This document shows positions 30,319 to 64,000 of a stretch of DNA of 64,000 nt, one piece after another. Each line of letters opens with the position of its first letter. Position 1 is the first letter of the stretch. The stretch spans positions 7,006,001 through 7,070,000 of the forward strand of contig CM102287.1 in the NCBI GenBank assembly GCA_046563655.1. Reading direction: 5' to 3'. The translations under genes and the position numbers were made by a program. The DNA comes from Yuukianura sp. NJ FZ-2021 (taxonomy: Eukaryota). The notes under the pieces were generated by a model. That model made no database searches and was not told the origin of the DNA. It saw nothing but the letters and a program-made list of their open reading frames with translations.

Positions 30319-30846
30319 ATGTCTGTTTCAAGAAAGATAAGTTCTGCTACCAAAACATTTAAGCACGACTACAATAAGCCATTGTCAGAAGATGACTTGG
30401 AACAAATCCAACAAATTTTTAGATCTTCGTCAACCTACAGAAAATCCAAAGAAGACGGAGAAGAGTACATTTCCAGTTCAGAAATTCCAGAATTCCTTGA
30501 TGCAATCGACTATCATAAATCAGTGGAACAATTGGCGGAGTATGCCGCTTTTTGGAACAAGTATTACGACGGGAAGATTCCCCTATCAAAACTGATCGAA
30601 GGGTTTCGAGTATTGCACGAGACACCGCAAGTTTCAAAAGTTGTAGCTTCATTATACGATACTAACCGAGATGGGATAATTTCGGAAACGGAGTTCAAAG
30701 AATTCGTGCATCTGATGGCAACTCATGAACCGAAGTTGAAAGAGTTTACTTTTGCCAGGTTCGTGAAAGAGGCAGACACAAACAAAGATGGCGTCGTGTC
30801 TCTCGAGGAATTCTCTAAATGGGCTGAATATAATCTCAAGGTGTAG
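30319..30846 (+). CDS. Intronless calmodulin-like EF-hand protein (175 aa)
   Basis: Canonical C-lobe loops DTNRDGIISETE and DTNKDGVVSLEE; degenerate N-lobe. Confidence 0.9.
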   Translation: MSVSRKISSATKTFKHDYNKPLSEDDLEQIQQIFRSSSTYRKSKEDGEEYISSSEIPEFLDAIDYHKSVEQLAEYAAFWNKYYDGKIPLSKLIEGFRVLHETPQVSKVVASLYDTNRDGIISETEFKEFVHLMATHEPKLKEFTFARFVKEADTNKDGVVSLEEFSKWAEYNLKV

Positions 30847-31855: not shown

Positions 31856-32629
31856 TTTTAGCAAAGCTCAATTTGCGTCACATATTTTTTAATCAACTAA
31901 TCTGGCTGAATTAATTAAGTAGAAGTTGATACGTAATTAGAAGTTGTGTAAACGTTCTAAAAAAAATAGAGTCGCTTGAACAATTTTCAGGAAAAACCAG
32001 TTTCTACACAGCATCTTGTTTTAATACTCAATGGGGCTTGATGGTAGAAGTTTTGAGAGAGTTATATAAAACGATTAATGAATTGTAAGGTCCGTTTGGA
32101 ACCTTGAATAGTAAGAGCAATTAGACGCCATTTTTTGAAGATTTTGAATTACATTTCAACATAGTCTTAAAACATGTTGAGCACAAACTGTTCAAAACGA
32201 TGACTTACGCAAATAAAGAAATTGTAATTTAAAAACTCTTTTCAAAACCAAAACGTAAAATCTATTTATCTTTTGTTGATTAATAGAAATTGTTGAGAAC
32301 GCTTAAATACTTTCAGTATAACCAATTTTCGATATCTAGCTCGAGAACATTGCAAAAAAAAACACAAAAAGAACAAAAAAAGAAAGAAAGAAGACCAATC
32401 ATCGTTAAAGTTTATGAAGTAATTTTTCAAATTTTTTTATTTCAAATTGATTCAAATTGAATTATAGTAATGTTAAAGTAAATTGACTTTCTCCAGCATC
32501 GTAAAATGTAATGTGGGTTTATGATTGCCATTACGGTACGGCTTCCCCGCTTCCTAGTCTTGGATTTGAATGAGTCCAACTCGCTTACATTCTGAGCGTA
32601 CGGTTTTGTATTTAAAATAAAAATCCAAC

Positions 32630-35600: not shown

Positions 35601-36327
35601 CAAAAACTAGTACAGAAAAACCATCTTATAACAACAAAGTTGAAGTGACGCTTAGAGTTGCTATAAGAGGGGCCTTTCTGTATGTTTCCAAAAAATTACA
35701 CCGAGAACAACATATCAGATAAATAAGGACACATTCGTTTTAAATTTGTTTTAGTACTTGTCGAGAACACTATTCGCAGCCACATTGGACGACTACAGGT
35801 CCGCGCCAGTCAATGAAGCAATCACTAGCGGGTCAACGATTCCAGATGCACTTAAAGCAGCTTCTGGACAAAACGGTTACGAGTATTGGCTGATCGATAC
35901 ACGCTACGACATGTACTACAACCAACCAGAAGCACTCCGTGCTGTTCTATGCCCAACAAATATGTTTGTCCGTGGATACGCTCCGCCTAACAGAGTTCTT
36001 TGCTCAGAGGAAGTACCGATTTTTGGGAAGGTATACACGACAATCCTAGGAGCAGAATCCACTTGCATTACTTCTGGTAGCACAGGATTACACGATTCAT
36101 TTAGCTGCTCCTTACGCTCGTTGATGCCGTCACACAACCAAGACGCCTACTTCTGTGTGCGCGGCTTTTATGGCCGTACCTCACCCACCTACGACACTGA
36201 TCCCTTGTGCACTAACGGCTACCAATGCTCGAACAAGGTCAACGGATCCAAGATTTGTGGATTGGTCACAGTATCAACCAATCCATCTGCAAATTGGTTT
36301 AAAGTTATATGTTGTAATGAAGTGTAA
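32630..36327 (+). CDS. Secreted protein with four copies of an uncharacterised Cys-rich module
   Basis: In-phase exons: 32630-32719, 32821-33263, 33389-33608, 33792-34352, 34462-34533, 34654-35193, 35294-35401, 35480-35542, 35755-36327. Leader is hydrophobic and each module ends CG..(G/L/K)(V/L)ICC. Confidence 0.7.
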
Positions 36328-44000: not shown

Positions 44001-44460
44001 TTCTTAAAATCAATTTAGTTCAGACTTTGGTGGATTATTAATCCACCAAGGCCGCGGAATGTTTGTAGAATTGCCCTATTTTCAATTCTACTTTTTCGGA
44101 AAAACAGAAACTCCATCTTTAGTTTTAGATTTAAAACTTTTCATTTAAATTTTAGTTTAAAAACCCCCCTCCTCCTCACATACCAAAAACCCCCTAGGTT
44201 ATATTTAAAATTACAACTACGCAGTTAGTTTTAGACTCTGTCTTTTTCCCTTTCTTCGACTAGTAGTCGTCCTTAGATTTCAGAACAAGCAGGTCATGTC
44301 CCTTGTCTCTAAGTTTTCGACCTCCAATTAACTATCAATTGTTAATTGCACTTCATTAATCGATTAATTAAATAACGGGTTAAAAGCCCTGATTTATATG
44401 GACTTCTGACTCTGGCTTGTCCATATTTATTCCTAAAAAAGTTCAGTACTTCACTGAACA
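38001..44460 (+). mobile_element. Full-length BEL/Pao LTR retrotransposon, element 1
   Basis: 401-bp LTRs (38001-38401, 44060-44460; TGT..ACA; ~5 substitutions), 5-bp TSD GTCTC and a single intact ORF. Confidence 0.97.
38456..43858 (+). CDS. BEL/Pao Gag-Pol polyprotein
   Basis: DUF1759-type gag (PTFNGDYTAWQDF), three Zn knuckles, protease LDPGS, RT (YLPHH, RIVFNAS, LVDN), RNase H (GFCDAS, PRLEL, TDS, NPAD) and integrase (DYAGP, CDGGRNF, WEAAVK). Confidence 0.96.
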   Translation: MAANSVTPPALPYASSVFGLKLFKTRAGKFLHSLDPSSWQVSSVDVSVQENNFFKIQSDLHYWKQNLIISSSLESDSESAFQEQEELLEQCETIVSKCHSAILMAKESVYNAMIKREQDSNIQVKGQSNDHFDFKLEKTKPPTFNGDYTAWQDFSDLFKAAVIDNPKISGAQKLVYLKNSLIGDAASIASSFPLNNLSFQEAWDLVEKRFNKKREIVFSHLQKLFSLQSVPDSSKGILKLVDTVNQCLRSLQILGVDVSQWDLFIVYWAHNKLDPETRRQWLLTTDDSLPTLSPFLEFLEKRADALTPTSSSKPKTTAPTSTAHHTTTEETKTKRSCPSCGDKSHKIFKCPEFLKLTPHDRSKISREKKLCTNCLASSHQIKECKSEGVCAKCSKRHNTLLHFDTPAPHLTPKSSGSTSGSNPRNEPAGSSAPSTPHSSSSSDDHVESHHSSATNTTNKVVLMATVVARVIDSNGDLQQCRVFLDPGSESNFVSESFAERFNLRRQKSCVNVTGIGGSTGGSTRGLVTFKLHSKFDNFIFPVKALVLPRLTGLLPRAKCQGTFTHLLGLSLADPDFNVPSPVDILLGAEATSQVLLPGLKFGPSGSPTAQDSRFGWFLTGTAPLSQPHTSTFTVSSCHASCDPNDHCLETAIQRFWDLDDPSPSASNFSPDEQECEDHFLRTFTRDSTGRYEVNLPFSSSGVLGESEKKAVSCFLSLEKQLERDPVLKTAYHSQIQDYLSRNWIEPVPAAELSSDKKVKVITVNNQEIFLRPFYLPHHVVVKLDNSTTKFRIVFNASSKTNSGSSLNSLLHSGPKIQTDLHPLLMRFRTHPIALCADIVKFYNQVKVFPPHCDFQRFIWRQQKGDTFTHFRFLRVTFGVTSAPYLAIRVLRQLGEDFKVNFPLAHSAIKDDFLVDNLLSGESTIEKVMELKSQLEEVLSQGQFPLQKWASNCPEVLQSLSPEERESLSMDIRLDESVKTIGLFWHPASDTFGVKISPPPTFATPTTKREILSHVARVFDPLQWLSPVTISAKILLQCLWKEKIGWDDPIPQHYVKKWLKYSSELELLRDFRIPRCVTFTSVPDSFTTVHDLIGFCDASNQAYAACVYLRSKCDGQVKVLLIAAKSKVAPVGGETTPRLELCSAVLLTQLVNMVYTALTSTKVNISTVICFTDSTGALGQLFSEEKQTVFVANRVRKIKKSPIQIHWYHVPGDVNPADPCSRGISASVFLQHPTWLHGPTFLQSEDLPPQPYTQHVVTFSAEVDPGSTFYSNGIIRLIKSKSSFVKMKRLLSYWIRLQNRFRKGAMPTSGPLTTKELDQAQLSLVKVVQQACFPEEISFCSKKKPVKGNIRFLSPFLDEHGILRVGGRLQMSALEFRTRHPILLPKCRTKPKSTEEKIFRRFTLCVARHFHQANLHAGPKLLLSLIRSEFWIPRGADLCNRIFRTCVICYKQRPQPATQIMAPLPASRVTPDLPFLKVGLDYAGPLKIAMIPGRKPRLLDAYVCVFVCMTTKAIHLEYVGGLSTPDFIAALQRFCSIRNTPSDIFCDGGRNFLGAKNELDALQTLLSSPEHQQKVALFATGEKINFHFSPPYGPHHGGIWEAAVKSMKLHLARIVQGHHISIEELITLLARTSAALNSRPLSPVSDDPNDFEALTPFHFLSLRAPKFIPEEDVTSMKSHRTRWEHVQQMAQHLFKRWSTDFLQSLQQKHKWLQIKPNIAKGMMVLVQDIDSSFKHKRWTLGRVEETFPGPDGNIRTCDVRIPVHDADIKSKPATKIFRRPITRLSPLPLDDDVTSAFSSIN

Positions 44461-46538: not shown

Positions 46539-49500
46539 TAGACTAATTCCGAATTTCGTTTTTCATAACTCGAATCTCAACTTAAAAAATTTACTTAACG
46601 TAGCCGAAATTTCTTAAAACGCAAAAAGTGAAAACAACTCTTTTCTAAATAATATTTCTAAATTTTTGACTAAACCTTCTCTGCACCATCACTTAGGAAC
46701 ACATACTAAATCCCACAACCGAAACCTACGGAATCACTTCTTGGCGAATGTGTCCATGCACAGATCGTTTCAAAGTCTCAATCCGCATTGGTTCGGGGAT
46801 GTGGTAAAAAAACTTAGTCCCTGCGTCTCTTGCTTGAATGCGCAGCAGAAGTGTTATTATTAGAGTTAACGAGACTTGACTTGACGTTTAACGTGACTTT
46901 CGGTTTTTTTCTATAAGCTAGAACATACGGCATTGTAGTAGATTGGGCGCGAGGACGGATCGAGGCTTGCAAGTAGCTGTTCAGGTGACACAGGGCAGGG
47001 AGGGGTGTGAATCTCTCTCGGTAAGTCCGGAGTGTGCCAGTTCGAGTGAACTGGGGCCGGAATCTCGAGCGTAGTCATTGACTAGTCCTCTGTCGTATGT
47101 ATCTTCGTGTAGACTAATTCCGAATTTCGTTTTTCACAACTCGAATCTCAACTTAAAATATTTACTTAACGTAGCCGAAATTTCTTAAAACGCAAAAAGT
47201 GAAAACAACTCTTTTCTAAATAATATTTCTAAATTTTTGACTAAACCTTCTCTGCACCATCACTTAGGAACACATACTAAATCCCACAACCGAAACCTAC
47301 GGAATCACTTCTTGGCGAATGTGTCCAGGCACAGATCGTTTCAAAGTCTCAATCCGCATTGGTTCGGGGATGTGGTAAAAAACTTAGTCCCTGTGTCTCT
47401 TGCTTGAATGCGCAGCAGAAGTGTTATTATTAGAGTTAACGAGACTTGACTTGACGTTTAACGTGACTTTCGGTTTTTTTCTATACGCTAGAACATACGG
47501 CATTGTAGTAGATTGGGCGCGAGGACGGATCGAGGCTTGCAAGTAGCTGTTCAGGTGACACAGGGCAGGGAGGGGTGTGAATCTCTCTCGGTAAGTCCGG
47601 AGTGTGCCAGTTCGAGTGAACTGGGGCCGGAATCTCGAGCGTAGTCATTGACTAGTCCTCTGTCGTATGTATCTTCGTGTAGACTAATTCCGAATTTCAT
47701 TTTTCACAACTCGAATCTCAACTTAAAAAATTTACTTAACGTAGCCGAAATTTCTTAAAACGCAAAAAGTGAAAACAACTCTTTTCTAAATAATATTTCT
47801 AAATTTTTGACTAAACCTTCTCTGCACCATCACTTAGGAACACATACTAAATCCCACAACCGAAACCTACGGAATCACTTCTTGGCGAATGTGTCCATGC
47901 ACAGATCGTTTCAAAGTCTCAATCCGCATTGGTTCGGGGATGTGGTAAAAAACTTAGTCCCTGTGTCTCTTGCTTGAATGCGCAGCAGAAGTGTTATTAT
48001 TAGAGTTAACGAGACTTGACTTGACGTTTAACGTGACTTTCGGTTTTTTTCTATACGCTAGAACATACGGCATTGTAGTAGATTGGGCGCGAGGACGGAT
48101 CGAGGCTTGCAAGTAGCTGTTCAGGTGACACAGGGCAGGGAGGGGTGTGAATCTCTCTCGGTAAGTCCGGAGTGTGCCAGTTCGAGTGAACTGGGGCCGG
48201 AATCTCGAGCGTAGTCATTGACTAGTCCTCTGTCGTATGTATCTTCGTGTAGACTAATTCCGAATTTCGTTTTTCACAACTCGAATCTCAACTTAAAAAA
48301 TTTACTTAACGTAGCCGAAATTTCTTAAAACGCAAAAAGTGAAAACAACTCTTTTCTAAATAATATTTCTAAATTTTTGACTAAACCTTCTCTGCACCAT
48401 CACTTAGGAACACATACTAAATCCCACAACCGAAACCTACGGAATCACTTCTTGGCGAATGTGTCCAGGCACAGATCGTTTCAAAGTCTCAATCCGCATT
48501 GGTTCGGGGATGTGGTAAAAAACTTAGTCCCTGTGTCTCTTGCTTGAATGCGCAGCAGAAGTGTTATTATTAGAGTTAACGAGACTTGACTTGACGTTTA
48601 ACGTGACTTTCGGTTTTTTTCTATACGCTAGAACATACGGCATTGTAGTAGATTGGGCGCGAGGACGGATCGAGGCTTGCAAGTAGCTGTTCAGGTGACA
48701 CAGGGCAGGGAGGGGTGTGAATCTCTCTCGGTAAGTCCGGAGTGTGCCAGTTCGAGTGAACTGGGGCCGGAATCTCGAGCGTAGTCATTGACTAGTCCTC
48801 TGTCGTATGTATCTTCGTGTAGACTAATTCCGAATTTCGTTTTTCACAACTCGAATCTCAACTTAAAAAATTTACTTAACGTAGCCGAAATTTCTTAAAA
48901 CGCAAAAAGTGAAAACAACTCTTTTCTAAATAATATTTCTAAATTTTTGACTAAACCTTCTCTGCACCATCACTTAGGAACACATACTAAATCCCACAAC
49001 CGAAACCTACGGAATCACTTCTTGGCGAATGTGTCCATGCACAGATCGTTTCAAAGTCTCAATCCGCATTGGTTCGGGGATGTGGTAAAAAACTTAGTCC
49101 CTGTGTCTCTTGCTTGAATGCGCAGCAGAAGTGTTATTATTAGAGTTAACGAGACTTGACTTGACGTTTAACGTGACTTTCGGTTTTTTTCTATACGCTA
49201 GAACATACGGCATTGTAGTAGATTGGGCGCGAGGACGGATCGAGGCTTGCAAGTAGCTGTTCAGGTGACACAGGGCAGGGAGGGGTGTGAATCTCTCTCG
49301 GTAAGTCCGGAGTGTGCCAGTTCGAGTGAACTGGGGCCGGAATCTCGAGCGTAGTCATTGACTAGTCCTCTGTCGTATGTATCTTCGTGTAGACTAATTC
49401 CGAATTTCGTTTTTCACAACTCGAATCTCAACTTAAAAAATTTACTTAACGTAGCCGAAATTTCTTAAAACGCAAAAAGTGAAAACAACTCTTTTCTAAA

Positions 49501-52500
49501 TAATATTTCTAAATTTTTGACTAAACCTTCTCTGCACCATCACTTAGGAACACATACTAAATCCCACAACCGAAACCTACGGAATCACTTCTTGGCGAAT
49601 GTGTCCAGGCACAGATCGTTTCAAAGTCTCAATCCGCATTGGTTCGGGGATGTGGTAAAAAACTTAGTCCCTGTGTCTCTTGCTTGAATGCGCAGCAGAA
49701 GTGTTATTATTAGAGTTAACGAGACTTGACTTGACGTTTAACGTGACTTTCGGTTTTTTTCTATACGCTAGAACATACGGCATTGTAGTAGATTGGGCGC
49801 GAGGACGGATCGAGGCTTGCAAGTAGCTGTTCAGGTGACACAGGGCAGGGAGGGGTGTGAATCTCTCTCGGTAAGTCCGGAGTGTGCCAGTTCGAGTGAA
49901 CTGGGGCCGGAATCTCGAGCGTAGTCATTGACTAGTCCTCTGTCGTATGTATCTTCGTGTAGACTAATTCCGAATTTCGTTTTTCACAACTCGAATCTCA
50001 ACTTAAAAAATTTACTTAACGTAGCCGAAATTTCTTAAAACGCAAAAAGTGAAAACAACTCTTTTCTAAATAATATTTCTAAATTTTTGACTAAACCTTC
50101 TCTGCACCATCACTTAGGAACACATACTAAATCCCACAACCGAAACCTACGGAATCACTTCTTGGCGAATGTGTCCATGCACAGATCGTTTCAAAGTCTC
50201 AATCCGCATTGGTTCGGGGATGTGGTAAAAAACTTAGTCCCTGTGTCTCTTGCTTGAATGCGCAGCAGAAGTGTTATTATTAGAGTTAACGAGACTTGAC
50301 TTGACGTTTAACGTGACTTTCGGTTTTTTTCTATACGCTAGAACATACGGCATTGTAGTAGATTGGGCGCGAGGACGGATCGAGGCTTGCAAGTAGCTGT
50401 TCAGGTGACACAGGGCAGGGAGGGGTGTGAATCTCTCTCGGTAAGTCCGGAGTGTGCCAGTTCGAGTGAACTGGGGCCGGAATCTCGAGCGTAGTCATTG
50501 ACTAGTCCTCTGTCGTATGTATCTTCGTGTAGACTAATTCCGAATTTCGTTTTTCACAACTCGAATCTCAACTTAAAAAATTTACTTAACGTAGCCGAAA
50601 TTTCTTAAAACGCAAAAAGTGAAAACAACTCTTTTCTAAATAATATTTCTAAATTTTTGACTAAACCTTCTCTGCACCATCACTTAGGAACACATACTAA
50701 ATCCCACAACCGAAACCTACGGAATCACTTCTTGGCGAATGTGTCCATGCACAGATCGTTTCAAAGTCTCAATCCGCATTGGTTCGGGGATGTGGTAAAA
50801 AAACTTAGTCCCTGTGTCTCTTGCTTGAATGCGCAGCAGAAGTGTTATTATTAGAGTTAACGAGACTTGACTTGACGTTTAACGTGACTTTCGGTTTTTT
50901 TCTATACGCTAGAACATACGGCATTGTAGTAGATTGGGCGCGAGGACGGATCGAGGCTTGCAAGTAGCTGTTCAGGTGACACAGGGCAGGGAGGGGTGTG
51001 AATCTCTCTCGGTAAGTCCGGAGTGTGCCAGTTCGAGTGAACTGGGGCCGGAATCTCGAGCGTAGTCATTGACTAGTCCTCTGTCGTATGTATCTTCGTG
51101 TAGACTAATTCCGAATTTCGTTTTTCACAACTCGAATCTCAACTTAAAAAATTTACTTAACGTAGCCGAAATTTCTTAAAACGCAAAAAGTGAAAACAAC
51201 TCTTTTCTAAATAATATTTCTAAATTTTTGACTAAACCTTCTCTGCACCATCACTTAGGAACACATACTAAATCCCACAACCGAAACCTACGGAATCACT
51301 TCTTGGCGAATGTGTCCATGCACAGATCGTTTCAAAGTCTCAATCCGCATTGGTTCGGGGATGTGGTAAAAAACTTAGTCCCTGTGTCTCTTGCTTGAAT
51401 GCGCAGCAGAAGTGTTATTATTAGAGTTAACGAGACTTGACTTGACGTTTAACGTGACTTTCGGTTTTTTTCTATACGCTAGAACATACGGCATTGTAGT
51501 AGATTGGGCGCGAGGACGGATCGAGGCTTGCAAGTAGCTGTTCAGGTGACACAGGGCAGGGAGGGGTGTGAATCTCTCTCGGTAAGTCCGGAGTGTGCCA
51601 GTTCGAGTGAACTGGGGCCGGAATCTCGAGCGTAGTCATTGACTAGTCCTCTGTCGTATGTATCTTCGTGTAGACTAATTCCGAATTTCGTTTTTCACAA
51701 CTCGAATCTCAACTTAAAAAATTTACTTAACGTAGCCGAAATTTCTTAAAACGCAAAAAGTGAAAACAACTCTTTTCTAAATAATATTTCTAAATTTTTG
51801 ACTAAACCTTCTCTGCACCATCACTTAGGAACACATACTAAATCCCACAACCGAAACCTACGGAATCACTTCTTGGCGAATGTGTCCAGGCACAGATCGT
51901 TTCAAAGTCTCAATCCGCATTGGTTCGGGGATGTGGTAAAAAACTTAGTCCCTGTGTCTCTTGCTTGAATGCGCAGCAGAAGTGTTATTATTAGAGTTAA
52001 CGAGACTTGACTTGACGTTTAACGTGACTTTCGGTTTTTTTCTATACGCTAGAACATACGGCATTGTAGTAGATTGGGCGCGAGGACGGATCGAGGCTTG
52101 CAAGTAGCTGTTCAGGTGACACAGGGCAGGGAGGGGTGTGAATCTCTCTCGGTAAGTCCGGAGTGTGCCAGTTCGAGTGAACTGGGGCCGGAATCTCGAG
52201 CGTAGTCATTGACTAGTCCTCTGTCGTATGTATCTTCGTGTAGACTAATTCCGAATTTCGTTTTTCACAACTCGAATCTCAACTTAAAAAATTTACTTAA
52301 CGTAGCCGAAATTTCTTAAAACGCAAAAAGTGAAAACAACTCTTTTCTAAATAATATTTCTAAATTTTTGACTAAACCTTCTCTGCACCATCACTTAGGA
52401 ACACATACTAAATCCCACAACCGAAACCTACGGAATCACTTCTTGGCGAATGTGTCCATGCACAGATCGTTTCAAAGTCTCAATCCGCATTGGTTCGGGG

Positions 52501-55437
52501 ATGTGGTAAAAAAACTTAGTCCCTGTGTCTCTTGCTTGAATGCGCAGCAGAAGTGTTATTATTAGAGTTAACGAGACTTGACTTGACGTTTAACGTGACT
52601 TTCGGTTTTTTTCTATACGCTAGAACATACGGCATTGTAGTAGATTGGGCGCGAGGACGGATCGAGGCTTGCAAGTAGCTGTTCAGGTGACACAGGGCAG
52701 GGAGGGGTGTGAATCTCTCTCGGTAAGTCCGGAGTGTGCCAGTTCGAGTGAACTGGGGCCGGAATCTCGAGCGTAGTCATTGACTAGTCCTCTGTCGTAT
52801 GTATCTTCGTGTAGACTAATTCCGAATTTCGTTTTTCTCAACTCGAATCTCAACTTAAAAAATTTACTTAACGTAGCCGAAATTTCTTAAAACGCAAAAA
52901 GTGAAAACAACTCTTTTCTAAATAATATTTCTAAATTTTTGACTAAACCTTCTCTGCACCATCACTTAGGAACACATACTAAATCCCACAACCGAAACCT
53001 ACGGAATCACTTCTTGGCGAATGTGTCCAGGCACAGATCGTTTCAAAGTCTCAATCCGCATTGGTTCGGGGATGTGGTAAAAAACTTAGTCCCTGTGTCT
53101 CTTGCTTGAATGCGCAGCAGAAGTGTTATTATTAGAGTTAACGAGACTTGACTTGACGTTTAACGTGACTTTCGGTTTTTTTCTATACGCTAGAACATAC
53201 GGCATTGTAGTAGATTGGGCGCGAGGACGGATCGAGGCTTGCAAGTAGCTGTTCAGGTGACACAGGGCAGGGAGGGGTGTGAATCTCTCTCGGTAAGTCC
53301 GGAGTGTGCCAGTTCGAGTGAACTGGGGCCGGAATCTCGAGCGTAGTCATTGACTAGTCCTCTGTCGTATGTATCTTCGTGTAGACTAATTCCGAATTTC
53401 GTTTTTCACAACTCGAATCTCAACTTAAAAAATTTACTTAACGTAGCCGAAATTTCTTAAAACGCAAAAAGTGAAAACAACTCTTTTCTAAATAATATTT
53501 CTAAATTTTTGACTAAACCTTCTCTGCACCATCACTTAGGAACACATACTAAATCCCACAACCGAAACCTACGGAATCACTTCTTGGCGAATGTGTCCAT
53601 GCACAGATCGTTTCAAAGTCTCAATCCGCATTGGTTCGGGGATGTGGTAAAAAACTTAGTCCCTGTGTCTCTTGCTTGAATGCGCAGCAGAAGTGTTATT
53701 ATTAGAGTTAACGAGACTTGACTTGACGTTTAACGTGACTTTCGGTTTTTTTCTATACGCTAGAACATACGGCATTGTAGTAGATTGGGCGCGAGGACGG
53801 ATCGAGGCTTGCAAGTAGCTGTTCAGGTGACACAGGGCAGGGAGGGGTGTGAATCTCTCTCGGTAAGTCCGGAGTGTGCCAGTTCGAGTGAACTGGGGCC
53901 GGAATCTCGAGCGTAGTCATTGACTAGTCCTCTGTCGTATGTATCTTCGTGTAGACTAATTCCGAATTTCGTTTTTCACAACTCGAATCTCAACTTAAAA
54001 AATTTACTTAACGTAGCCGAAATTTCTTAAAACGCAAAAAGTGAAAACAACTCTTTTCTAAATAATATTTCTAAATTTTTGACTAAACCTTCTCTGCACC
54101 ATCACTTAGGAACACATACTAAATCCCACAACCGAAACCTACGGAATCACTTCTTGGCGAATGTGTCCATGCACAGATCGTTTCAAAGTCTCAATCCGCA
54201 TTGGTTCGGGGATGTGGTAAAAAACTTAGTCCCTGTGTCTCTTGCTTGAATGCGCAGCAGAAGTGTTATTATTAGAGTTAACGAGACTTGACTTGACGTT
54301 TAACGTGACTTTCGGTTTTTTTCTATACGCTAGAACATACGGCATTGTAGTAGATTGGGCGCGAGGACGGATCGAGGCTTGCAAGTAGCTGTTCAGGTGA
54401 CACAGGGCAGGGAGGGGTGTGAATCTCTCTCGGTAAGTCCGGAGTGTGCCAGTTCGAGTGAACTGGGGCCGGAATCTCGAGCGTAGTCATTGACTAGTCC
54501 TCTGTCGTATGTATCTTCGTGTAGACTAATTCCGAATTTCGTTTTTCACAACTCGAATCTCAACTTAAAAAATTTACTTAACGTAGCCGAAATTTCTTAA
54601 AACGCAAAAAGTGAAAACAACTCTTTTCTAAATAATATTTCTAAATTTTTGACTAAACCTTCTCTGCACCATCACTTAGGAACACATACTAAATCCCACA
54701 ACCGAAACCTACGGAATCACTTCTTGGCGAATGTGTCCAGGCACAGATCGTTTCAAAGTCTCAATCCGCATTGGTTCGGGGATGTGGTAAAAAACTTAGT
54801 CCCTGTGTCTCTTGCTTGAATGCGCAGCAGAAGTGTTATTATTAGAGTTAACGAGACTTGACTTGACGTTTAACGTGACTTTCGGTTTTTTTCTATACGC
54901 TAGAACATACGGCATTGTAGTAGATTGGGCGCGAGGACGGATCGAGGCTTGCAAGTAGCTGTTCAGGTGACACAGGGCAGGGAGGGGTGTGAATCTCTCT
55001 CGGTAAGTCCGGAGTGTGCCAGTTCGAGTGAACTGGGGCCGGAATCTCGAGCGTAGTCATTGACTAGTCCTCTGTCGTATGTATCTTCGTGTAGACTAAT
55101 TCCGAATTTCGTTTTTCACAACTCGAATCTCAACTTAAAAAATTTACTTAACGTAGCCGAAATTTCTTAAAACGCAAAAAGTGAAAACAACTCTTTTCTA
55201 AATAATATTTCTAAATTTTTGACTAAACCTTCTCTGCACCATCACTTAGGAACACATACTAAATCCCACAACCGAAACCTACGGAATCACTTCTTGGCGA
55301 ATGTGTCCAGGCACAGATCGTTTCAAAGTCTCAATCCGCATTGGTTCGGGGATGTGGTAAAAAACTTAGTCCCTGTGTCTCTTGCTTGAATGCGCAGCAG
55401 AAGTGTTATTATTAGAGTTAACGAGACTTGACTTGAC
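46539..55437. repeat. Tandem array of near-identical 570/571-bp units (15 full + 1 partial)
   Basis: TAGACTAATTCCGAATTTC recurs at 46539, 47110, 47680, 48250, 48820, 49390, 49960, 50530, 51101, 51671, 52241, 52812, 53382, 53952, 54522 and 55092. A diverged copy of the GC-rich part sits at ~55555-55781. Confidence 0.98.
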
Positions 55438-55948
55438 ATTAGAAAAAAGTAGAAAAAAGGTAGAAAAAATTGCTTGGGGCGAGATTTTTTTGAAAACAGG
55501 ACTTACTGCCAAACCTCTTAAAGGAAAAGTATTTCGTTGCTATGGCAACTTTGATTTAACGGGACTTTCAGTTTTTTCTTATACGCGAGAACATACGGCA
55601 TTGCAGTAGATTGGGCGCGAAGACGGATCGAGGCTTGCAAGTAGCTGTTCAGGTGACACAGGGCAGGGAGGGATGTGAATCCCTCTCGGTGAGTCCGGAG
55701 TGTGCCAGTTCGAGTGAACCGGGGCCGGAATCTCGAGCGTAGTCATTGACTAATCCTCTGTCGTATGGATCTTCGTGTATATTTAACGTGACTTTCGGTT
55801 TTTTTCTTTCATTAACTTATCGTTTGTTGTATTTTTAACGGGACTTTCGGTTTTTTTCTTCCATTGACTTATCTTATATAGGTTTCCCTTTTGAGCAGTA
55901 ACTCCAGTTCCAGCGGAGCGGGGACCTTACCCCGGAAACAAAGGGGCC

Positions 55949-56014
55949 ATTGCACAACGGTCTACCGTGTTGCTCGGTACTGATGAGACACTAGCAGTCA
56001 GAAACCGTTGCAAT
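55949..56014 (+). ncRNA. Type III hammerhead ribozyme (candidate)
   Basis: Stem III CAACGG/CCGTTG, GUC cleavage triplet (C55962), stem I TACCG-TGTTGCT-CGGTA, core CTGATGA, stem II GAC-ACTAGCA-GTC, one extra A, then GAAA. Confidence 0.75.
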
Positions 56015-56190
56015 AGTAGCCATTCTTGAATTAAGATATTTATTAACTTAAAACTAAAAAGGAAAAAAACAAAAAAATCGAAGTTTCGAAGTGTTACGTT
56101 TACTTAATCCAAATTAATAAAAAAAAATATAAAATGGGCTTCGGAAAATGTATTTTTATTATCAAAAAATTGACGAATCGTGAACCCCTC

Positions 56191-59100
56191 TGTTCAGGAA
56201 CTTTCAACCTGAACTTTTACTGAATTGAAATAAACAAAAGGGATCTGACCAAATCTGAGAAGTTCAGATCAATCAGGGCTTTTAACCCTTGGTTTAATGA
56301 ATGAAAGTTAATTAGAACAATTAATTGTTAAAGAGAGGTGAGAGCGAGTACTTAGACCTGTACTTGAAGTGACAACGTGCTAAGATCGACTTAGAGCTAA
56401 CAGAGCAAAAGAGAACAAAAGAACAAATCTAACTGCGTAGATGAGGGAGGGGCTAAGATGCCTGAAAATGAGGGAATTTTGAACCTAAATTTAAGCGGTA
56501 ATTTTAAACTAGAAAACCGAGTGGAAGCGGCTTGGGCAATTCCACAAACATTCCCCGGCGTTGGTGGATTTAGGAAATCCACCAAGGAAAACTGGAAATT
56601 AAAGCGGAAACGAAAACGGGGTTGCTTGTGAAACCGCGCACAAGCGCAAGAAACTTAAATTTTAGAAGGAGAGATAGGCTTAAATTTAAGTTAAATCTAA
56701 ATTTTAAAGAAAATCTAAATTTAAAACTTAACTCTAAACTCTACTCGAAATTGAAAAGAAAAGAGCTACATCTAGTTGATGCTGGAGAATGCTGCGGTGA
56801 CGTCATCATCGATTGGCAGAGGAGCAAGTCGAGTGATGGGGCGTCTGTAGACTTTCGTGTTGGGTCCCTTCTTGTCGGAGTTGTCGACTGGAATCCGAAC
56901 GTCGCAGGTTCTGACTCGTCCGTCGGGCCCAGGGAAGGTGGCTTCGATACGTCCAAGAGTCCAGCGCTTGTGCTTGAACGAGGAGTCGACATCTTGGACG
57001 AGGACCATCATTCCAGTGGCGAGATTAGGCTGGACTTGGAGCCACTTGTGTTTCTGCTGGAGAGATTGAAGGAAGTCGGAGCTCCAGCTTTTGAAGAAAT
57101 GCTGAGACATCTGTTGGATCAGTTCCCAGCGGCTGCGGTGTGACTTCATTGAAGTCAAATCCTCTTCCGGAATGTACTTAGGAGCACGGAGAGACAGGAA
57201 GTGGAATGGAGTGAGTGCCTGGAAATCATCGGGGTGATTTGAGACAGGCGTCAGAGGTCTGGAATTCAATGCAGCTGAAGTGCGAGCGAGGAGAGTCACA
57301 AATTCTTCCAGTGAAATATGGTGACCTTGAACAATTCTGGAGAGGTGGAGCTTCATGCTCTTGACGGCCGCTTCCCAGAGTCCACCATGATGGGGTCCAT
57401 AAGGGGGGCTGAAGTAGAAGTTAATTTTCTCCCCAGTTGCAAACAGCGTTACTTTGTGCTGATGTTGAGGAGAAGACAACAGCGTTTGAAGGGCTTCCAT
57501 CTCGTTCTTAGCGCCAAGGAAGTTCCGTCCTCCGTCGCAGTAGATTTCTGCTGGAGTGTTGCGGATGGCGCAGAAGCGTTGGAGAGCCGCGATGAAGTCT
57601 GGAGTGGAGAGTCCTCCGACGTACTCCAGATGAATGGCCTTGGTAGCCATGCAGATGAACACGCAAACGTAGGCGTCGATTAGGCGTGGATTCCGTCCTG
57701 GAATGAGGGCAATTTTGAGTGGACCTGCGTAGTCCACGCCAACTTTCAGGAACGGGAGATCCGGAGTCACACGAGCGGTGGGCAGAGGTGCCATAATTTG
57801 AGTGGTATGGTGAGGTCGTTGTTTGAAGCAGATCACGCAGGATTTGAAGATCCGAGTGCAGAGGTCTGCTCCTCTTGGAATCCAGAATTCCGAGCGGATG
57901 AGTGAGAGTAGGAGTTTCGGTCCAGCGTGGAGGTTTGCTTCATGGAAGTGACGAGCCACAGCAAGGACAAAGTGACTGAAGATTCGGTCTTCAGTTGAAG
58001 TAGGCTTGGAATGGCACTTTGGTAGAAGGACTGGATGACGGCTGGAGAATTCGAGTGCCGACATCTGGAGTCTGCCTCCTACGCGAAGGATGCCATTGTG
58101 GTCCAAGAAGGGAGAAAGGAACTTGATGTTGCCTTTGATTTGCTTCTTCTTGGCGCAGAAGTCGAGTTCTTCGGGAAAACAGGCCTTCTGGACTTCCTTG
58201 ATGAGGGCAAGTTGAGCCTGTTCCAGTTCGACTGAAGTGAGCGGTCCAGAGGTCGGCATCGCTCCTGTTCGGTGGTTGTTCTGGAGTCTGATCCAGTAGG
58301 CGAGAAGCCGTTTCATTTTGGAGAATGATGGAGTTGACTCGATGAGACGCAGAATTCCACATGAGGCGAATGTTGCACCAGCTCCGAGCGAGGCTATAAA
58401 AGTTGCAACATTTTCAGCGTAAGGTTGAGGGGGGAGATCTTCTGCCTTGAGGAAATCTGGTCCGTGGAGCCAGAGTGGATGAATGAGGAAGTTGGAAGGC
58501 GAGATTCCCCTTGAGCAGCAGTCAGCAGGGTTCAGCTCTCCCGGTACGTGGTACCAACGGGTAGTGACTGGACTATTCTTGATTTTTCGGACGCGATTGG
58601 CCACGAAGACTGTCTGCTTCTCAGTAGAAAAGAGTTGTCCGAGTGCTCCAGTGGAATCTGTGAAGCACAGAACAGAAGAAATTTTAATTTTTGTAGAATT
58701 TAAGGCTGTGTAGACGCTGTTCACAAGTTGTGACAGAAGTACGGCGCTGCACAGTTCTAATCTTGGAGTTGTTTCTCCACCGACGGGAGCAACCTTGGTT
58801 TTGGCTGCGATGAGCAGGATTTTGACCTCGTCCTCGCACTTTGACCGCAGGTAGACGCAGGCGCCGTACGCGAGATTTGACGCGTCGCAGAAGCCTATGA
58901 GGTCGTGGGTCACAGTAGAGGCGGGTACTGAAGTAGCGAAAGTCAGACATCGAGGGATGCGGAAATCGCGAAGAAGTTCAAGTTCAGAGGAGTACTTGAG
59001 CCATTTCTTGACGTAGTGATGAGGAATGGGATCGTCCCATCCTATTTTCTCTTTCCAGAGGGACTGGAGTAGAATTTTGGCGGAAATGGTGACTGGACTG

Positions 59101-62100
59101 AGCCATTGAAGAGGGTCAAAGACCCGAGCAACATGTGAAAGGATTTCACGTTTGGTGAATGTTGAGAGAGATGGTGGTGGAGAGATTTTCACGCCAAAAG
59201 AATCTGAGGCTGGATGCCAGAAGAGCCCAATGGTCTTGACAGATTCGTCAACTTGAATGTCCATGGAGTAGTTTTCCCGCTCTTCTGGTGAAAGTGACTC
59301 GAGTACTTCCGGGCAGTTAGAAGCCCATTTTTGAAGAGGGAACTTGCCCATGGTGAGAACAGATTCAAGTTGAGACTTGAGTTGGATGACTTCTTCCGTT
59401 GTGTTTCCGCCTGAGAGTAGGTTGTCCACAAGGAAGTCGTTTTGAATTGAAGCGTAGGCGAGAGGGAAGTCTTCTTTGCATTCTTCCCCCAGTTGGCGTA
59501 GAACGCGAATGGCCAGAAATGGAGCAGTGGTTACGCCAAAAGTCAAACGAAGAAAACGAAGATGAGTGAATGGTTCACCCCGGTCTGGTCTCCACAGAAA
59601 ACGTTGAAAGTTGCAGTGTGATGGAGAGACCTTGATCTGATTGTAAAATTTTACAATGTCAGCACAGAGTGTGATGGGGTGAGTGCGGAAGCGCATGAGC
59701 AGTGGATGAAGATCCGTCTGGATTTTTGGACCAGAGTGGAGAATGGAGTTGAGAGAGTGTCCGGAACTGGTTTTTGACGAAGCGTTGAAAACGATCCGGA
59801 ACTTTGTGGTTGTATTCTCCGGCTTTACAACCACATGATGAGGTAGGTAGAACGGAGAAAGAGAGAGTTGAGTTCCATTAGCTGATGTGACCTTGACCTT
59901 CAGATTCGGAGAAAGTTCAGCGTCAGGAATCTTCTCGACCCAGTTTCTGGCAATGTAGTCCTGGATCTGAGTGTGATAGGCAGATTTGAGGGTAGGGTCC
60001 TTGTCGAGCTGACGTTCCAGTGAGAGGAAGCAGGAAGTTGCTTTCTTCATGGATTCCCCCAGATCCCCAGAATCTTTAAATGGTAAGCTGACTTCATACC
60101 GTCCAGTTGAGTCGCGGGAGACGGTACTCTGGAAGTGACTTTCAGCTTCCTGATCATCAGCCGTAAGTTGAGGTGATGGAGGAGATGGATCCTCAAATTC
60201 CCAAAATCGCTCAAGTGATGCTTCCAAACACTGATCGTTTGGATCACAAGAAGCGTGGCATGAAGTGACGCAAAAAGTTGAGGTGTGACCCGGGCTTAAC
60301 GGGGCTGTGCCCGTAAGAAACCAGCCAAAACGAGAGTCTTGTGCTGTAGGAGTTCCAGAAGGTCCAATTTTGAGTCCGGGCAGGAGCACTTGAGCGGTGG
60401 CTTCTGCGCCGAGTAAGATGTCAATTGATGACGGAATGTTGAATGTAGGATCGGCCAGAGACAGGCCAGTCAAGTGCGGAAATGACCCCTCGCAGTTGGA
60501 GCGTGGAAGTAGTCCAGTCAGACGAGGCAGAATGAGAGCCTTAACAGGAAAAACAAAGTTATCAAAACGTGAGTGTAAATCGAATTTTACCACTCCCTTT
60601 GTAGAACCTCCAGATGAACCACCAATTCCAGTCACGCTGACGCATGACTTCTGTCGCTTCAAGTTGAAACGATCAGCGAAGGCTTCAGAGACGAAGTTTG
60701 ATTCGGAACCGGGGTCCAGAAAGACACGGCAGAGTTGACGATCCCCATTCCGGTCAATGACTCTTGCGACGACAGTCGCCATCAGAACCACTTTGGTAGT
60801 GGTGGTCGTAGAGGACGAGTGATGGGATTCGACGTGAACGTCAGAAGATGTGGTTGAGCCGGATGCTGAGGGTGTTGTTCTTGCCGGTGAAGAATTTTTA
60901 GAAGATGAGCCAGGAGTTGACCCGTTTGGTTTAGGATGAAGAGGTGGGACGTGAGTTTCAAAGTGTAGAAGAGTGTGATGCTTTTTTGAACATTTAGCAC
61001 ACACCCCTTCACTTTTACACTCACGAGTCTGATGACTTGAAGATAAACAATTAAGACAAAGTTTCTTCTCACGGGCGGCAGCTGATCGGTCGTGAGGAAG
61101 TAACTTCATGAAATCCGGACATTTGTAGATCCGGTGATTCTTGTCGTTACACTGAGGACAGGCGAATTTGGATTTGGTTTGCGCTGTAGTAGTGTGATGG
61201 ACAGTGGGAGAAGAAGTGGTTGATTTTCCCTTTGATGACGATGATGATGTTGGAGTGAGGGCGTTGGCTCTTTTCTCCAGAAACTCCATGAACGGAGGAA
61301 GAGTAGGAAGTTCATCGTCGGTGGTCAATAACCACTGTCTTCTGGTCTCCTGATCGAGTTTCAAGTGGGCCCAGAAGACGATGAAAATATCCCAATGGGT
61401 GACATCCACGTTCAAAATCTTCAAGGAGCGAAGGCATTGGTTGATGGTGTCCACCAGTTTCAGAATTCCTTTGGAAGTATCTGGAACTGACTGAAGAGAA
61501 AAAAGTTTGGTTAGATGGGAAAACACAATTTCTCGTTTTTTATTAAAACGTTTTTCGACCAGTTCCCATGCTTCAGCGAAGCTGAGATTGTTGAGAGGAA
61601 ACGACGAAGCGATTGAAGCTGCTTCCCCAGTGAGAGAGTTCTTGAGGTAGACGAGTTTTTGAGCACCGGAAATTCTGGGATTCTGGATGACGGCAGCCTG
61701 GAATAGATCCGAGAAGTTCTGCCAATCGGTGTAATCGCCATTGAAAGTCGGTGGTTTAGTCTTTTCGAGCTTAAACTCAGATTCAATGTTCAGCGTTTCA
61801 ACATTTCTGGTAACTTGAGTATGGGTTTTAGGAGTAATTGACTCACGAGTTGAAAGAAGGATGAGATGGATGGTCTCGAACAGATCATCGCAGTCCTCAA
61901 GTATGGATTCGACATCCTTCCAAGAATCGTCGTCTGATGAGCTGAACACTTTGTCGATGTTTTGTTTTATGAAGTTCAGTTCGTTTTTAAGTTCAGTGAA
62001 CTTTCCTTCCTTCACTGAAACTTCACATGATGTAGTAGGGATCCAAACACTGGGAACAAGAGTTGTTTGGAAACGAATTACACTTTTGTGTAATCGTTTG

Positions 62101-62574
62101 AGGCTGAAGATGGTTGTAGCACTGGTTACCATGGAATCACTGGTAGAGGCCATGATTCACTGATAGAGTCACTGATAACTTGAAAAGGTTAATTTTAGAT
62201 GATCTGAAAAACAATGTTCAGGAACTTTCAACCTGAACTTTTACTGAATTGAAATAAACAAAAGGGATCTGACCAAATCTGAGAAGTTCAGATCAATCAG
62301 GGCTTTTAACCCTTGGTTTAATGAATGAAAGTTAATTAGAACAATTAATTGTTAAAGAGAGGTGAGAGCGAGTACTTAGACCTGTACTTGAAGTGACAAC
62401 GTGCTAAGATCGACTTAGAGCTAACAGAGCAAAAGAGAACAAAAGAACAAATCTAACTGCGTAGATGAGGGAGGGGCTAAGATGCCTGAAAATGAGGGAA
62501 TTTTGAACCTAAATTTAAGCGGTAATTTTAAACTAGAAAACCGAGTGGAAGCGGCTTGGGCAATTCCACAAACA
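56191..62574 (-). mobile_element. Full-length BEL/Pao LTR retrotransposon, element 2
   Basis: 360-bp LTRs (56191-56550, 62215-62574) look identical by eye. 5-bp TSD CCCTC and an intact ORF. Confidence 0.97.
56772..62153 (-). CDS. BEL/Pao Gag-Pol polyprotein (1793 aa)
   Basis: Same domain order and motifs as element 1. Both proteins end DDDVT(S/A)AFSSIN. Confidence 0.96.
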   Translation of the reverse strand: MASTSDSMVTSATTIFSLKRLHKSVIRFQTTLVPSVWIPTTSCEVSVKEGKFTELKNELNFIKQNIDKVFSSSDDDSWKDVESILEDCDDLFETIHLILLSTRESITPKTHTQVTRNVETLNIESEFKLEKTKPPTFNGDYTDWQNFSDLFQAAVIQNPRISGAQKLVYLKNSLTGEAASIASSFPLNNLSFAEAWELVEKRFNKKREIVFSHLTKLFSLQSVPDTSKGILKLVDTINQCLRSLKILNVDVTHWDIFIVFWAHLKLDQETRRQWLLTTDDELPTLPPFMEFLEKRANALTPTSSSSSKGKSTTSSPTVHHTTTAQTKSKFACPQCNDKNHRIYKCPDFMKLLPHDRSAAAREKKLCLNCLSSSHQTRECKSEGVCAKCSKKHHTLLHFETHVPPLHPKPNGSTPGSSSKNSSPARTTPSASGSTTSSDVHVESHHSSSTTTTTKVVLMATVVARVIDRNGDRQLCRVFLDPGSESNFVSEAFADRFNLKRQKSCVSVTGIGGSSGGSTKGVVKFDLHSRFDNFVFPVKALILPRLTGLLPRSNCEGSFPHLTGLSLADPTFNIPSSIDILLGAEATAQVLLPGLKIGPSGTPTAQDSRFGWFLTGTAPLSPGHTSTFCVTSCHASCDPNDQCLEASLERFWEFEDPSPPSPQLTADDQEAESHFQSTVSRDSTGRYEVSLPFKDSGDLGESMKKATSCFLSLERQLDKDPTLKSAYHTQIQDYIARNWVEKIPDAELSPNLKVKVTSANGTQLSLSPFYLPHHVVVKPENTTTKFRIVFNASSKTSSGHSLNSILHSGPKIQTDLHPLLMRFRTHPITLCADIVKFYNQIKVSPSHCNFQRFLWRPDRGEPFTHLRFLRLTFGVTTAPFLAIRVLRQLGEECKEDFPLAYASIQNDFLVDNLLSGGNTTEEVIQLKSQLESVLTMGKFPLQKWASNCPEVLESLSPEERENYSMDIQVDESVKTIGLFWHPASDSFGVKISPPPSLSTFTKREILSHVARVFDPLQWLSPVTISAKILLQSLWKEKIGWDDPIPHHYVKKWLKYSSELELLRDFRIPRCLTFATSVPASTVTHDLIGFCDASNLAYGACVYLRSKCEDEVKILLIAAKTKVAPVGGETTPRLELCSAVLLSQLVNSVYTALNSTKIKISSVLCFTDSTGALGQLFSTEKQTVFVANRVRKIKNSPVTTRWYHVPGELNPADCCSRGISPSNFLIHPLWLHGPDFLKAEDLPPQPYAENVATFIASLGAGATFASCGILRLIESTPSFSKMKRLLAYWIRLQNNHRTGAMPTSGPLTSVELEQAQLALIKEVQKACFPEELDFCAKKKQIKGNIKFLSPFLDHNGILRVGGRLQMSALEFSSRHPVLLPKCHSKPTSTEDRIFSHFVLAVARHFHEANLHAGPKLLLSLIRSEFWIPRGADLCTRIFKSCVICFKQRPHHTTQIMAPLPTARVTPDLPFLKVGVDYAGPLKIALIPGRNPRLIDAYVCVFICMATKAIHLEYVGGLSTPDFIAALQRFCAIRNTPAEIYCDGGRNFLGAKNEMEALQTLLSSPQHQHKVTLFATGEKINFYFSPPYGPHHGGLWEAAVKSMKLHLSRIVQGHHISLEEFVTLLARTSAALNSRPLTPVSNHPDDFQALTPFHFLSLRAPKYIPEEDLTSMKSHRSRWELIQQMSQHFFKSWSSDFLQSLQQKHKWLQVQPNLATGMMVLVQDVDSSFKHKRWTLGRIEATFPGPDGRVRTCDVRIPVDNSDKKGPNTKVYRRPITRLAPLPIDDDVTAAFSSIN

Positions 62575-62800: not shown

Positions 62801-64000
62801 ATGAAACTTTTGCTAAGATATTTCATCTTCAAATTTTTGTTACTTCCTTCAACTTTTGAACAAACTTGTGGTAAAGGCAAAGGTACAACATGGAATGATG
62901 TAAGTGTATATTTTTGAATTCCAAAAAACTATAAAACGTTTTCTAAATTTCAAATTTCTATAATCTTTTCACCATCCAAAATACAATTAATACATCTATA
63001 TGACTATTGCATTACATAAACACTCAGATATGTATAATAGTTGAGCTTTATTTAGAAACTAAGTTACTTTTTCAGTGGTTAACCCAATCTTTCATAATGT
63101 TTAGATACATGTTGCGCTACCCAAGCAACATCCACTGACGTCGGATACGTTTGCGAACTATCCAGCATTTCTGAAGAACTTACCGGATGCTTTCAGCAAC
63201 ATCCGAGGGACGACCATTGCCGATATCATCCAGAACACGGCAGTCGGTTCCGAACTTCCATATGATGATTCTAGTTTCTTCAGCGCCTATCCATGCGAAG
63301 ATGGATTTGAACTCAAAGGCTACGGAGACGATTTTGTCCTTTGCTCCAGAATGAGCACGGTTGTTGAAAACCACTTCGAATATGGCGACAAGAAGTGTGT
63401 CAGAAACTACTGTGATTTGAAAGCACTCAACGAAATTGACCAACCTGGAGAAGGTTCGGTTGACGAAGATGTTGTGAACAACAATGTTCGAGGATCAGAA
63501 GCCGATCCAGAAACTTTGTGCCCTGCAAATTACACCGCTCCTTTTGATTGCTACAATGACAAAATGTAACGAAACATTCACTTTAGCATTAACTTTGAAG
63601 TTTTAAACGGTTTGTTCAATTTGTTTCACTTTTTTACATTAGAATTTAAAGATGTTTGTCTTGGTTTTAGTATATGTAGCGCCACCATTTGTACCAAACA
63701 TGGAATTCATGGCTTTGGAGAGAACGGATACGCATGTGCAACTAGCAGCGAGGATAACATTTTGCAATGTCTGGATTGCTTACCTGAAAAATCATGTCAG
63801 AGTTACCAATATGCTTGTGGTGTGTTAAGGATTACTATGCCTGGTGGAGGAGATGAGACTCAAGGCTTAATATGCTGTTCAAATACAGTTCTGGTAACGC
63901 TTTCACATTATTTAAGTGCAATTCTTGCATTCTAAATTCATTTTTAAATTTTGATTTCAGGACGTCGTGCTGGTACCCGTCACAGACCCAACGCACAGAA
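62801..64000 (+). CDS. Paralogue of the Cys-rich secreted protein (runs off window end)
   Basis: Exons 62801-62899, 63105-63565, 63671-63893, 63961-. Shares FANY..LPDAF.NIRGTT.ADIIQ, FEYGDKKC, CTKHG.HGFG and CLPEKSC.SYQYACG, with the same intron positions. Confidence 0.8.

Follow-up and report, generated by a model that had tools for sequence, protein, structure and literature searches.

Type I hammerhead ribozymes predominate in animal genomes, and type III hammerheads in plants (PMC7229834, PMC7761336; these reviews, as well as PMC7936874, PMC3088659 and PMC4209133 below, are cited for the portions of their text available to us). Elements with type III hammerheads are nevertheless mentioned in insects (PMC7761336). 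In de la Pena et al. 2021 (PMC7936874), type III hammerheads in which loops I and II form Watson-Crick pairs are described both from the deltavirus-like RNAs of toad and termite and, as isolated motifs, from the DNA of Drosophila pseudoobscura, Coptotermes, Cryptotermes and several dipterans, the D. pseudoobscura case being credited to Perreault 2011. According to a 2026 preprint, an invertebrate kolmiovirus carries type III hammerheads. Given that type III is already in print for insect DNA genomes (PMC7936874), its presence in an animal is less surprising than the initial annotation of this locus had claimed, although its statement that animal hammerheads are mostly of type I agrees with the reviews.

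Two structural varieties of type III hammerheads are relevant here. The insect ribozymes have a long helix I (an internal loop and an approximately 20-nt hairpin), a 6-bp helix II and a GCCR/YGGC loop-loop pairing (PMC7936874). In the classical fast type III ribozymes, including the classical members of Rfam family RF00008 (Hammerhead_3), helix I typically has 6 bp and a loop of 6-8 nt, helix II has 4 bp and a loop of 4 nt, and the contact between the loops is of a non-Watson-Crick kind (PMC7936874). More broadly, according to Perreault 2011 (PMC3088659), pseudoknots between stems I and II probably occur in about 40% of hammerheads, and they are common in type III hammerheads whose stem I exceeds stem II by 2 bp (legend to Fig. 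S4).

The window, i.e. the whole 64-kb stretch of arthropod DNA analysed here, contains a single type III hammerhead motif, with the following features.

55949..56014, plus strand: whole hammerhead-like motif with extended stem III (from sequence)
55955..56010, plus strand: core motif, matched by RF00008 (model positions 1-54 of 54) and by our own descriptor (profile and descriptor scans)
55955-55961 / 56004-56010, plus strand: inner part of stem III, 7 bp including A15.1-U16.1
55949-55952 / 56011-56014, plus strand: distal part of stem III, beyond a 2-nt bulge, 4 bp
55960..55962, plus strand: GUC triplet, with the predicted cut between C55962 and U55963 (from sequence)
55963..55979, plus strand: stem-loop I, UACCG / CGGUA with loop UGUUGCU (stem 55963-55967 / 55975-55979, 5 bp)
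55980..55986, plus strand: CUGAUGA box, C3-A9 (from sequence)
55987..55999, plus strand: stem-loop II, GAC / GUC with loop ACUAGCA (stem 55987-55989 / 55997-55999, 3 bp)
56000, plus strand: extra A between C11.1 and G12 (from sequence)
56001..56004, plus strand: GAAA box, G12-A15.1 (from sequence)

Direct reading bears out the complete core (CUGAUGA, GAAA and GUC), the three pairing stems and the type III topology reported in the initial annotation: helices I and II are closed by loops, helix III is open, and the G10.1-C11.1 pair is G55987-C55999. The cleavage triplet fits the RUH rule (GUC), A56004 pairs with U55961 as A15.1-U16.1, and stem III is exceptionally long (7+4 bp). The junction C55962/U55963, which we take to be the predicted cut, is assigned by hammerhead numbering and agrees with the earlier prediction of cleavage after C55962. 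The spacing of the core is not canonical: A56000 is lodged between stem II and GAAA, which should directly follow C11.1. The motif is seen by our descriptor only when a 1-nt insertion by stem II is allowed; the same scan finds no type III motif on the minus strand of the 64-kb window, and the window holds no second hammerhead and no paralog of the hammerhead region.

Compared with RF00008, a family that includes viroid, satellite RNA, plant retrozyme and bacterial type III hammerheads, the motif has the same order of elements and the same core boxes and aligns over the full length of the model, but differs in its score (28.0 versus 48.5 bits) and in the extra A at 11.1/12. The comparison with the insect type III ribozymes (PMC7936874) was made by description rather than by sequence: an arthropod host, type III topology, an isolated genomic motif and a first stem I of 5 bp are common to both, and the Watson-Crick contact between the stem I and stem II loops of the insect ribozymes has a candidate counterpart here. 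Unlike the insect ribozymes, the motif has a plain loop I of 7 nt and a helix II of 3 bp that is likewise closed by 7 nt; the UGCU/AGCA complementarity and the extra A also set it apart. Judging by its sequence, it is a compact form of the known insect-type Watson-Crick type III hammerhead, with plain loops, a 3-bp helix II and the extra A. The hammerheads surveyed by Perreault 2011 (PMC3088659) offer further parallels, namely, the 2-bp difference between the stems, a short stem II (2-3 bp is common) and the existence of rare core insertions; the insertion at 11.1/12 sets the motif apart from the hammerheads described in the available text of that survey, where the repeat-borne eukaryotic examples are mostly of type I.

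The complementarity of loops I and II noticed earlier is indeed present in the sequence: UGCU (55971-55974, loop I) can form four Watson-Crick pairs with AGCA (55993-55996, loop II). A Watson-Crick run of at least 4 arises with P = 0.06 in random 7-nt loops and with P = 0.15 when these two loops are shuffled. Stem I (5 bp) exceeds stem II (3 bp) by 2 bp. As far as can be told from the pairing potential, the candidate contact is of the Watson-Crick kissing or pseudoknot kind of Perreault 2011 and not of the classical type III kind; the equation with the contact of fast natural hammerheads, made in the initial annotation, thus does not hold (PMC7936874, PMC3088659; available text).

The extra A is an unusual feature of the motif. 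To put it in context, hammerheads with the same stem I can be compared. Type II hammerheads of this kind occur at 44 viral loci (34 distinct sequences), and stem II is in register in all 34; not one of these 34 distinct natural sequences carries a base between C11.1 and G12, in agreement with the earlier remark that an A before GAAA is atypical. The single apparent type III viral example with the same stem I (L095) has a canonical core as well. An extra base between A9 and G10.1, on the other side of stem II, is compatible with activity in a viroid hammerhead. The hammerheads of Penelope-like elements likewise conserve an additional base at this junction, on the strand opposite to A56000 (A9/G10.1; PMC4209133). 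The natural core insertions named in the available text of Perreault 2011 (PMC3088659) are A6a, with low activity, U13a, which is tolerated, and two bases near C3, which leave the ribozyme nearly inactive; an insertion at 11.1/12 is not among them. By analogy with the opposite strand, it is plausible that a bulged A56000 is tolerable. Still, we found no precedent for an insertion at 11.1/12, and this is the main reason for doubting activity.

This raises the possibility that the motif is a decayed relic, descended from an active type III hammerhead but unable to cut at a useful rate because of the inserted A and the pairing between CUGAU and GUCAG. The insertion falls at the most conserved junction (G10.1-C11.1 / G12), where none of the 34 natural examples has an extra base, and the core insertions named by Perreault 2011 range from tolerated (U13a) to poorly active (A6a) or nearly dead (near C3). 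The predicted folding points in the same direction: the hammerhead fold has -14.1 kcal/mol versus -17.3 kcal/mol for the predicted minimum free energy (MFE) structure, which is a different fold that pairs CUGAU with GUCAG and hence favours inactive pairing. This CUGAU/GUCAG helix is possible because of the extra A. Against decay stands the retention of an extra base on the opposite strand of the junction in the Penelope-like elements (PMC4209133), and the other genomic copies described below also bear on this question. Overall, we consider decay unlikely.

A more general concern is chance. A search of the whole window against Rfam gave no match at the gathering score, and a 601-base search at E<=10 gave no match to a type I or type III hammerhead; the sole row from the hammerhead clan in the latter search was a partial match to the type II model, at 13.8 bits. 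RF00008 aligns end to end (55955-56010) on a 74-base slice, with 28.0 bits and E = 1e-4, an E value that belongs to that slice, as the match appears only in the 74-base search where the filters are lax; the gathering threshold of RF00008, 48.5 bits, is not reached. The Rfam hammerhead search suggested in the initial annotation therefore brought no confirmation, the score being 28.0 against 48.5 bits. Matches to other Rfam families over 55700-56300 are weak and far under their thresholds.

The chance expectation was estimated from random sequence, where a motif was counted as at least as good as ours if it had an exact CUGAUGA and stems of at least 5, at least 3 and at least 7 bp. A random strand of 3 Gb contained 18 such motifs (about 6 per Gb), 7 of them insertion-free and 11 with an insertion, which corresponds to about 8e-4 motifs in a window of 64 kb and about 2 in a genome of 200 Mb. 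A descriptor with looser stems picked up 44 motifs in 40 Mb of random sequence (about 1 per Mb-strand), 12 of these without an insertion. With about 2 chance motifs per 200-Mb genome, the motif by itself proves nothing genome-wide. The folding energy is unremarkable, with a z-score of -1.0 and 23 of 200 shuffled sequences folding equally well.

Together with the sub-threshold RF00008 score and the core insertion, which recurs in 11 of the 18 chance motifs, these figures agree with an alternative in which a chance hammerhead-like string resides in a low-copy repeat that is repeated for non-catalytic reasons, for example, as a mobile-element fragment, and undergoes no self-cleavage. Several properties run counter to this alternative, which we regard as unlikely although by no means negligible. 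The four outer pairs of stem III, the complementarity of the loops (P 0.06) and the 2-bp difference between the stems all go beyond the descriptor, the outer pairs and the complementarity having been counted post hoc. The strongest points against it come from other copies of the motif.

To survey other genomic copies, contigs of four DNA runs, three from one sample (possibly the one from which the window derives) and one from a second organism and a second study, were aligned to 55780-56190. In all four runs, the summed contig depth rises over 55934-56017, by up to about 15-fold; these depths are sums over contigs, to which other organisms may contribute.

Run X1: flank depth 386, peak depth 4428
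Run X2: flank depth 434, peak depth 6435
Run X3: flank depth 62, peak depth 320
Run X4: flank depth 3.9, peak depth 25.6

Among the matches listed, at least six contigs are similar to the locus solely across the hammerhead block, with flanks unlike the locus and 4-6 differences each. Some other genomic copies have a longer block in common with the locus.

55955-56010, block-only contig, run X1: exactly the span of the RF00008 match, with unlike sequence on both sides
55941-56014, two block-only contigs: 4-6 differences each
55941-56008, block-only contig: 4-6 differences
55938-56008, two block-only contigs: one is a 929-nt contig from the second organism, at about 5.6x local depth
55880..56046, plus strand: longer block common to some other genomic copies (from contig matches)

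Of the longer copies, contigs that start at 55880 number two per run and have an upstream flank unlike the locus; X1 and X2 contigs match 55880-55969 with 6-7 differences and another upstream flank, and one X2 contig matches 55979-56045. The initial annotation proposed a search for other copies and their flanks. In the contigs of these four DNA runs, the motif does occur in several copies, and the hammerhead is the block that the copies have in common, which speaks for a real ribozyme family. The depth peak and the block-only contigs therefore point to a low-copy dispersed family whose members share essentially the hammerhead. Such block-limited sharing is what is expected of a conserved functional module and not of an accident within a longer repeat. 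Indeed, the ending of similarity at or near the hammerhead ends, on both sides and in several contigs, is unexpected for a chance string, and the copies read retain the GAA and CCGU elements. The greater summed depth on the 5' half of the block than on the 3' half counts in favour of the chance explanation. It is the contig depth peak over the block that lifts the motif above chance.

The differences between the copies are informative within the region that they cover. Substitutions less than about 20 bases from the end of a matching piece apparently go unlisted, so the variant tally presumably covers the 5' half of the copies, and loop II, GAAA and the 3' strand of stem III lie outside it. 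Two kinds of difference reach at least 10% of the depth: T>C at the final base of loop I (55974) and 1-base deletions in stem II and loop II (55987, 55989 and 55992). Among the contigs listed, GUC, stem I and CUGAUGA show no substitution at or above 10% of the depth. In the most abundant of the other copies, 55987 (G10.1, if taken literally) and 55992 are deleted. In run X2, a loose end after 55986 reveals a copy with GGCA in the loop II region, and the same loose-end read has GAAU in place of GAAA. It is possible that this GGCA would pair with the common loop I variant UGCC, which would be a compensatory change from U-A to C-G if both occur on one molecule.

These differences also bear on decay. 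With deletions in stem II and loop II, and GAAU in one copy, some copies may be dead, and the stem II indels and the GAAU read count in favour of decay. No indel at the extra A (56000) is present among the contig differences listed, however, so this A appears to be ancestral to the family rather than a private lesion. Moreover, the copy in the window (55949-56014) has the best stems among the copies that are readable, another point against a relic.

Taken together, we regard it as moderately probable that the motif is a genuine type III hammerhead, one of a small dispersed arthropod family of roughly at least ten copies, and that it probably still cuts. If so, a transcript of the plus strand would fold into a three-way junction, with G56001 (G12) as the general base for the 2'-OH of C55962; cleavage of the C55962-U55963 linkage would leave a 2',3'-cyclic phosphate and a 5'-OH. 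The four Watson-Crick pairs between 55971-55974 and 55993-55996 would align stems I and II side by side, which would let the cut occur at low Mg2+, with A56000 presumably bulged out of the junction between stem II and the core. By analogy with other repeat-borne hammerheads of animals, the likeliest role would be transcript processing in a family of repeats or mobile elements. Here, any RNA that reads through from the adjoining array would be cut by the ribozyme.

The hammerhead lies between a tandem array and a retrotransposon.

46539-55437, plus strand: 570-bp tandem array, about 15.6 units, >99% identical (self-comparison of the window)
55555-55779, plus strand: separate copy of the 225-bp core of the array, 94% identical (self-comparison of the window)
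55782..55873, plus strand: two solo 25-nt boxes, each followed by a CATTRACTTATC-like motif, without the RNA segment, just upstream of the hammerhead block
38001-44460, plus strand: BEL/Pao LTR retrotransposon, element 1 (Pfam domains)
56191-62574, minus strand: BEL/Pao LTR retrotransposon, element 2 (Pfam domains), with 360-bp LTRs 100% identical

The core of the array consists of a 25-nt upstream box and, about 58 nt further on, an RNA-like segment with strong folding (about 140-165 nt; -52.6 kcal/mol for 151 nt). No Rfam family matches the 570-bp unit at E<=1, and a CUGANGA box is missing from both of its strands; the unit resembles a multicopy small-RNA gene outside the catalogued families. 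The 25-nt box has 18 matches in the window where 0 are expected (15 in the array, one in the divergent copy and two solo). Here, the box lies about 20 nt upstream of the common block, and two longer paralogs differ in the 30 nt upstream; we give low weight to a role of the box as a promoter of the snRNA type for the hammerhead block. A motif similar to that after the solo boxes (TTTATTAACTTA) follows the hammerhead block at 56039-56050, and in other hammerhead copies CCGT is followed directly by ATTAACTT. The motifs of the CATTRACTTATC/TTTATTAACTTA/ATTAACTT type may be a common 3' signal, or a coincidence.

The hammerhead begins 170 bp past the last array core, which ends at 55779 on the same strand, and ends 176 bp before the LTR, which starts at 56191, so it belongs to neither the array core nor the LTR element, in agreement with the placement given in the initial annotation. 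The position beside the array stands as described there, but a functional link with the array is not borne out, the flanks of the other copies being unlike this locus and the array unit lacking CUGANGA. Homology between the hammerhead unit and the array cassette was considered and found unconvincing (the MAFFT alignment is patchy, 20 nt of it agreeing at about 80%; BLAST E values of 11-78). A tRNA or SINE origin was likewise dismissed, as ARAGORN found nothing in 55400-56300.

The two BEL/Pao elements are 74% identical, lie in opposite orientation on either side of the array and retain intact gag-pol frames of about 1800 aa; they encode the Pfam domains Peptidase_A17, DUF1759, DUF5641 and Integrase_H2C2, and their neighbours in the Atlas are mostly from Arthropoda, which assigns the window to an arthropod. 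The 100% identical LTRs of element 2 (56191-62574) and its 5-bp target duplication (CCCTC) indicate a recent insertion. At 56046/56047, one contig in each of the four runs follows the window to 56046 and then continues in other sequence, and the depth in run X1 falls from about 366 to about 199 beyond 56046. This break suggests a structural polymorphism, or a second haplotype without the sequence from 56047 onward, perhaps including the LTR element.

Before the LTR insertion, about 800 bp separated the 3' end of the motif from the start codon (62803) of a downstream gene, in the same orientation, that encodes an apparently secreted cysteine-rich protein. Cysteine-rich, apparently secreted domains without a Pfam match are encoded in repeated exons at 32821-36327 (plus strand) and 62803-63935 (plus strand), the downstream copy having a first exon that resembles a signal peptide (ATG at 62803, GT donor at 62901). 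The flank beyond the LTR insertion is 62-67% identical to 32420-33831, a paralogous locus, and the similarity to this paralogous cysteine-rich locus stops short of the hammerhead. Elsewhere in the window, fragments of host genes at 787-1296, 5198-5662, 18297-19441 and 30319-30846 correspond to a class II tRNA synthetase core, a CS domain, SET plus MYND (SMYD-like) and EF-hand exons, and confirm an ordinary eukaryotic chromosomal setting.

A hammerhead on a repeated non-coding genomic family with an adjoining tandem array resembles the situation in retrozymes. Unlike retrozymes, the window contains one hammerhead and no motif-bearing flanking direct repeats, and the retrozymes of animals have type I hammerheads. 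An LTR retrozyme, with two hammerhead-bearing direct repeats around 600-1000 nt of non-coding sequence, does not match the single type III motif in 64 kb; nor does a non-LTR retrozyme, which consists of tandem units each with a type I hammerhead, match the adjoining 570-bp unit, with neither CUGANGA nor an Rfam match at E<=1.

No relatives outside the two organisms were found in the metagenome, viral and prokaryote collections. With a pattern specific for the family, the scan of metagenomes gave 10 loci, of which nine are coding or chance matches and one is an unrelated type I hammerhead (L038); prokaryote genomes gave 0 loci, and viral contigs gave 5, all chance or coding. When viral contigs were scanned for type III motifs that carry the same stem I, 13 loci came up, nearly all of which are type II hammerheads plus a stray downstream GAAAC. 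The string that comprises stem I and the core, GGUC-UACCG...CGGUA-CUGAUGAG, is identical in 32 phage loci (IMG/VR), in type II hammerheads with stem I UACCGG/CCGGUA (L001-L032, L048-L091), which counts in favour of a genuine ribozyme motif. These ribozymes differ from the motif in being circularly permuted, with stem II open, in their canonical spacing (34 of 34) and in residing in bacterial viruses. The stem that they have in common with the motif is no evidence of common descent. Most of these widespread phage hammerheads are located just upstream of a gene start.

The strands of the analysis can be joined in a more ambitious, and improbable, scenario that combines a new core variant, an arthropod type III repeat family, a possible tandem retrozyme-like copy and the end of a small-RNA-type unit. 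Under this scenario, an extra base between C11.1 and G12 would be tolerated in a natural hammerhead core; the contig from the second organism (at least 929 nt, about 5.6-fold depth) could be a tandem, retrozyme-like element; and the ribozyme would end a transcription unit of the small-RNA type that shares the 25-nt box and a CATTRACTTA-like downstream motif with the 570-bp array.

Type III hammerheads with Watson-Crick loop pairing are already known in insect DNA, and the motif described here, as its sequence suggests, is probably a genuine added member, one that Rfam missed in ordinary searches. If the motif is inactive, it cautions that chance alone yields about two full-looking hammerhead motifs per 200 Mb. 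Should it be active, compact type III hammerheads with a Watson-Crick loop-loop contact would gain an arthropod family, and the junction between stem II and G12 would be seen to tolerate an inserted base, which would help descriptors that now miss such variants. The finding would gain weight with proof that the 11.1/12 insertion is active, or with evidence that the copies form an animal type III retrozyme-like family. An active motif would also provide a small, easily assayed case for the function of dispersed hammerheads in animal genomes.
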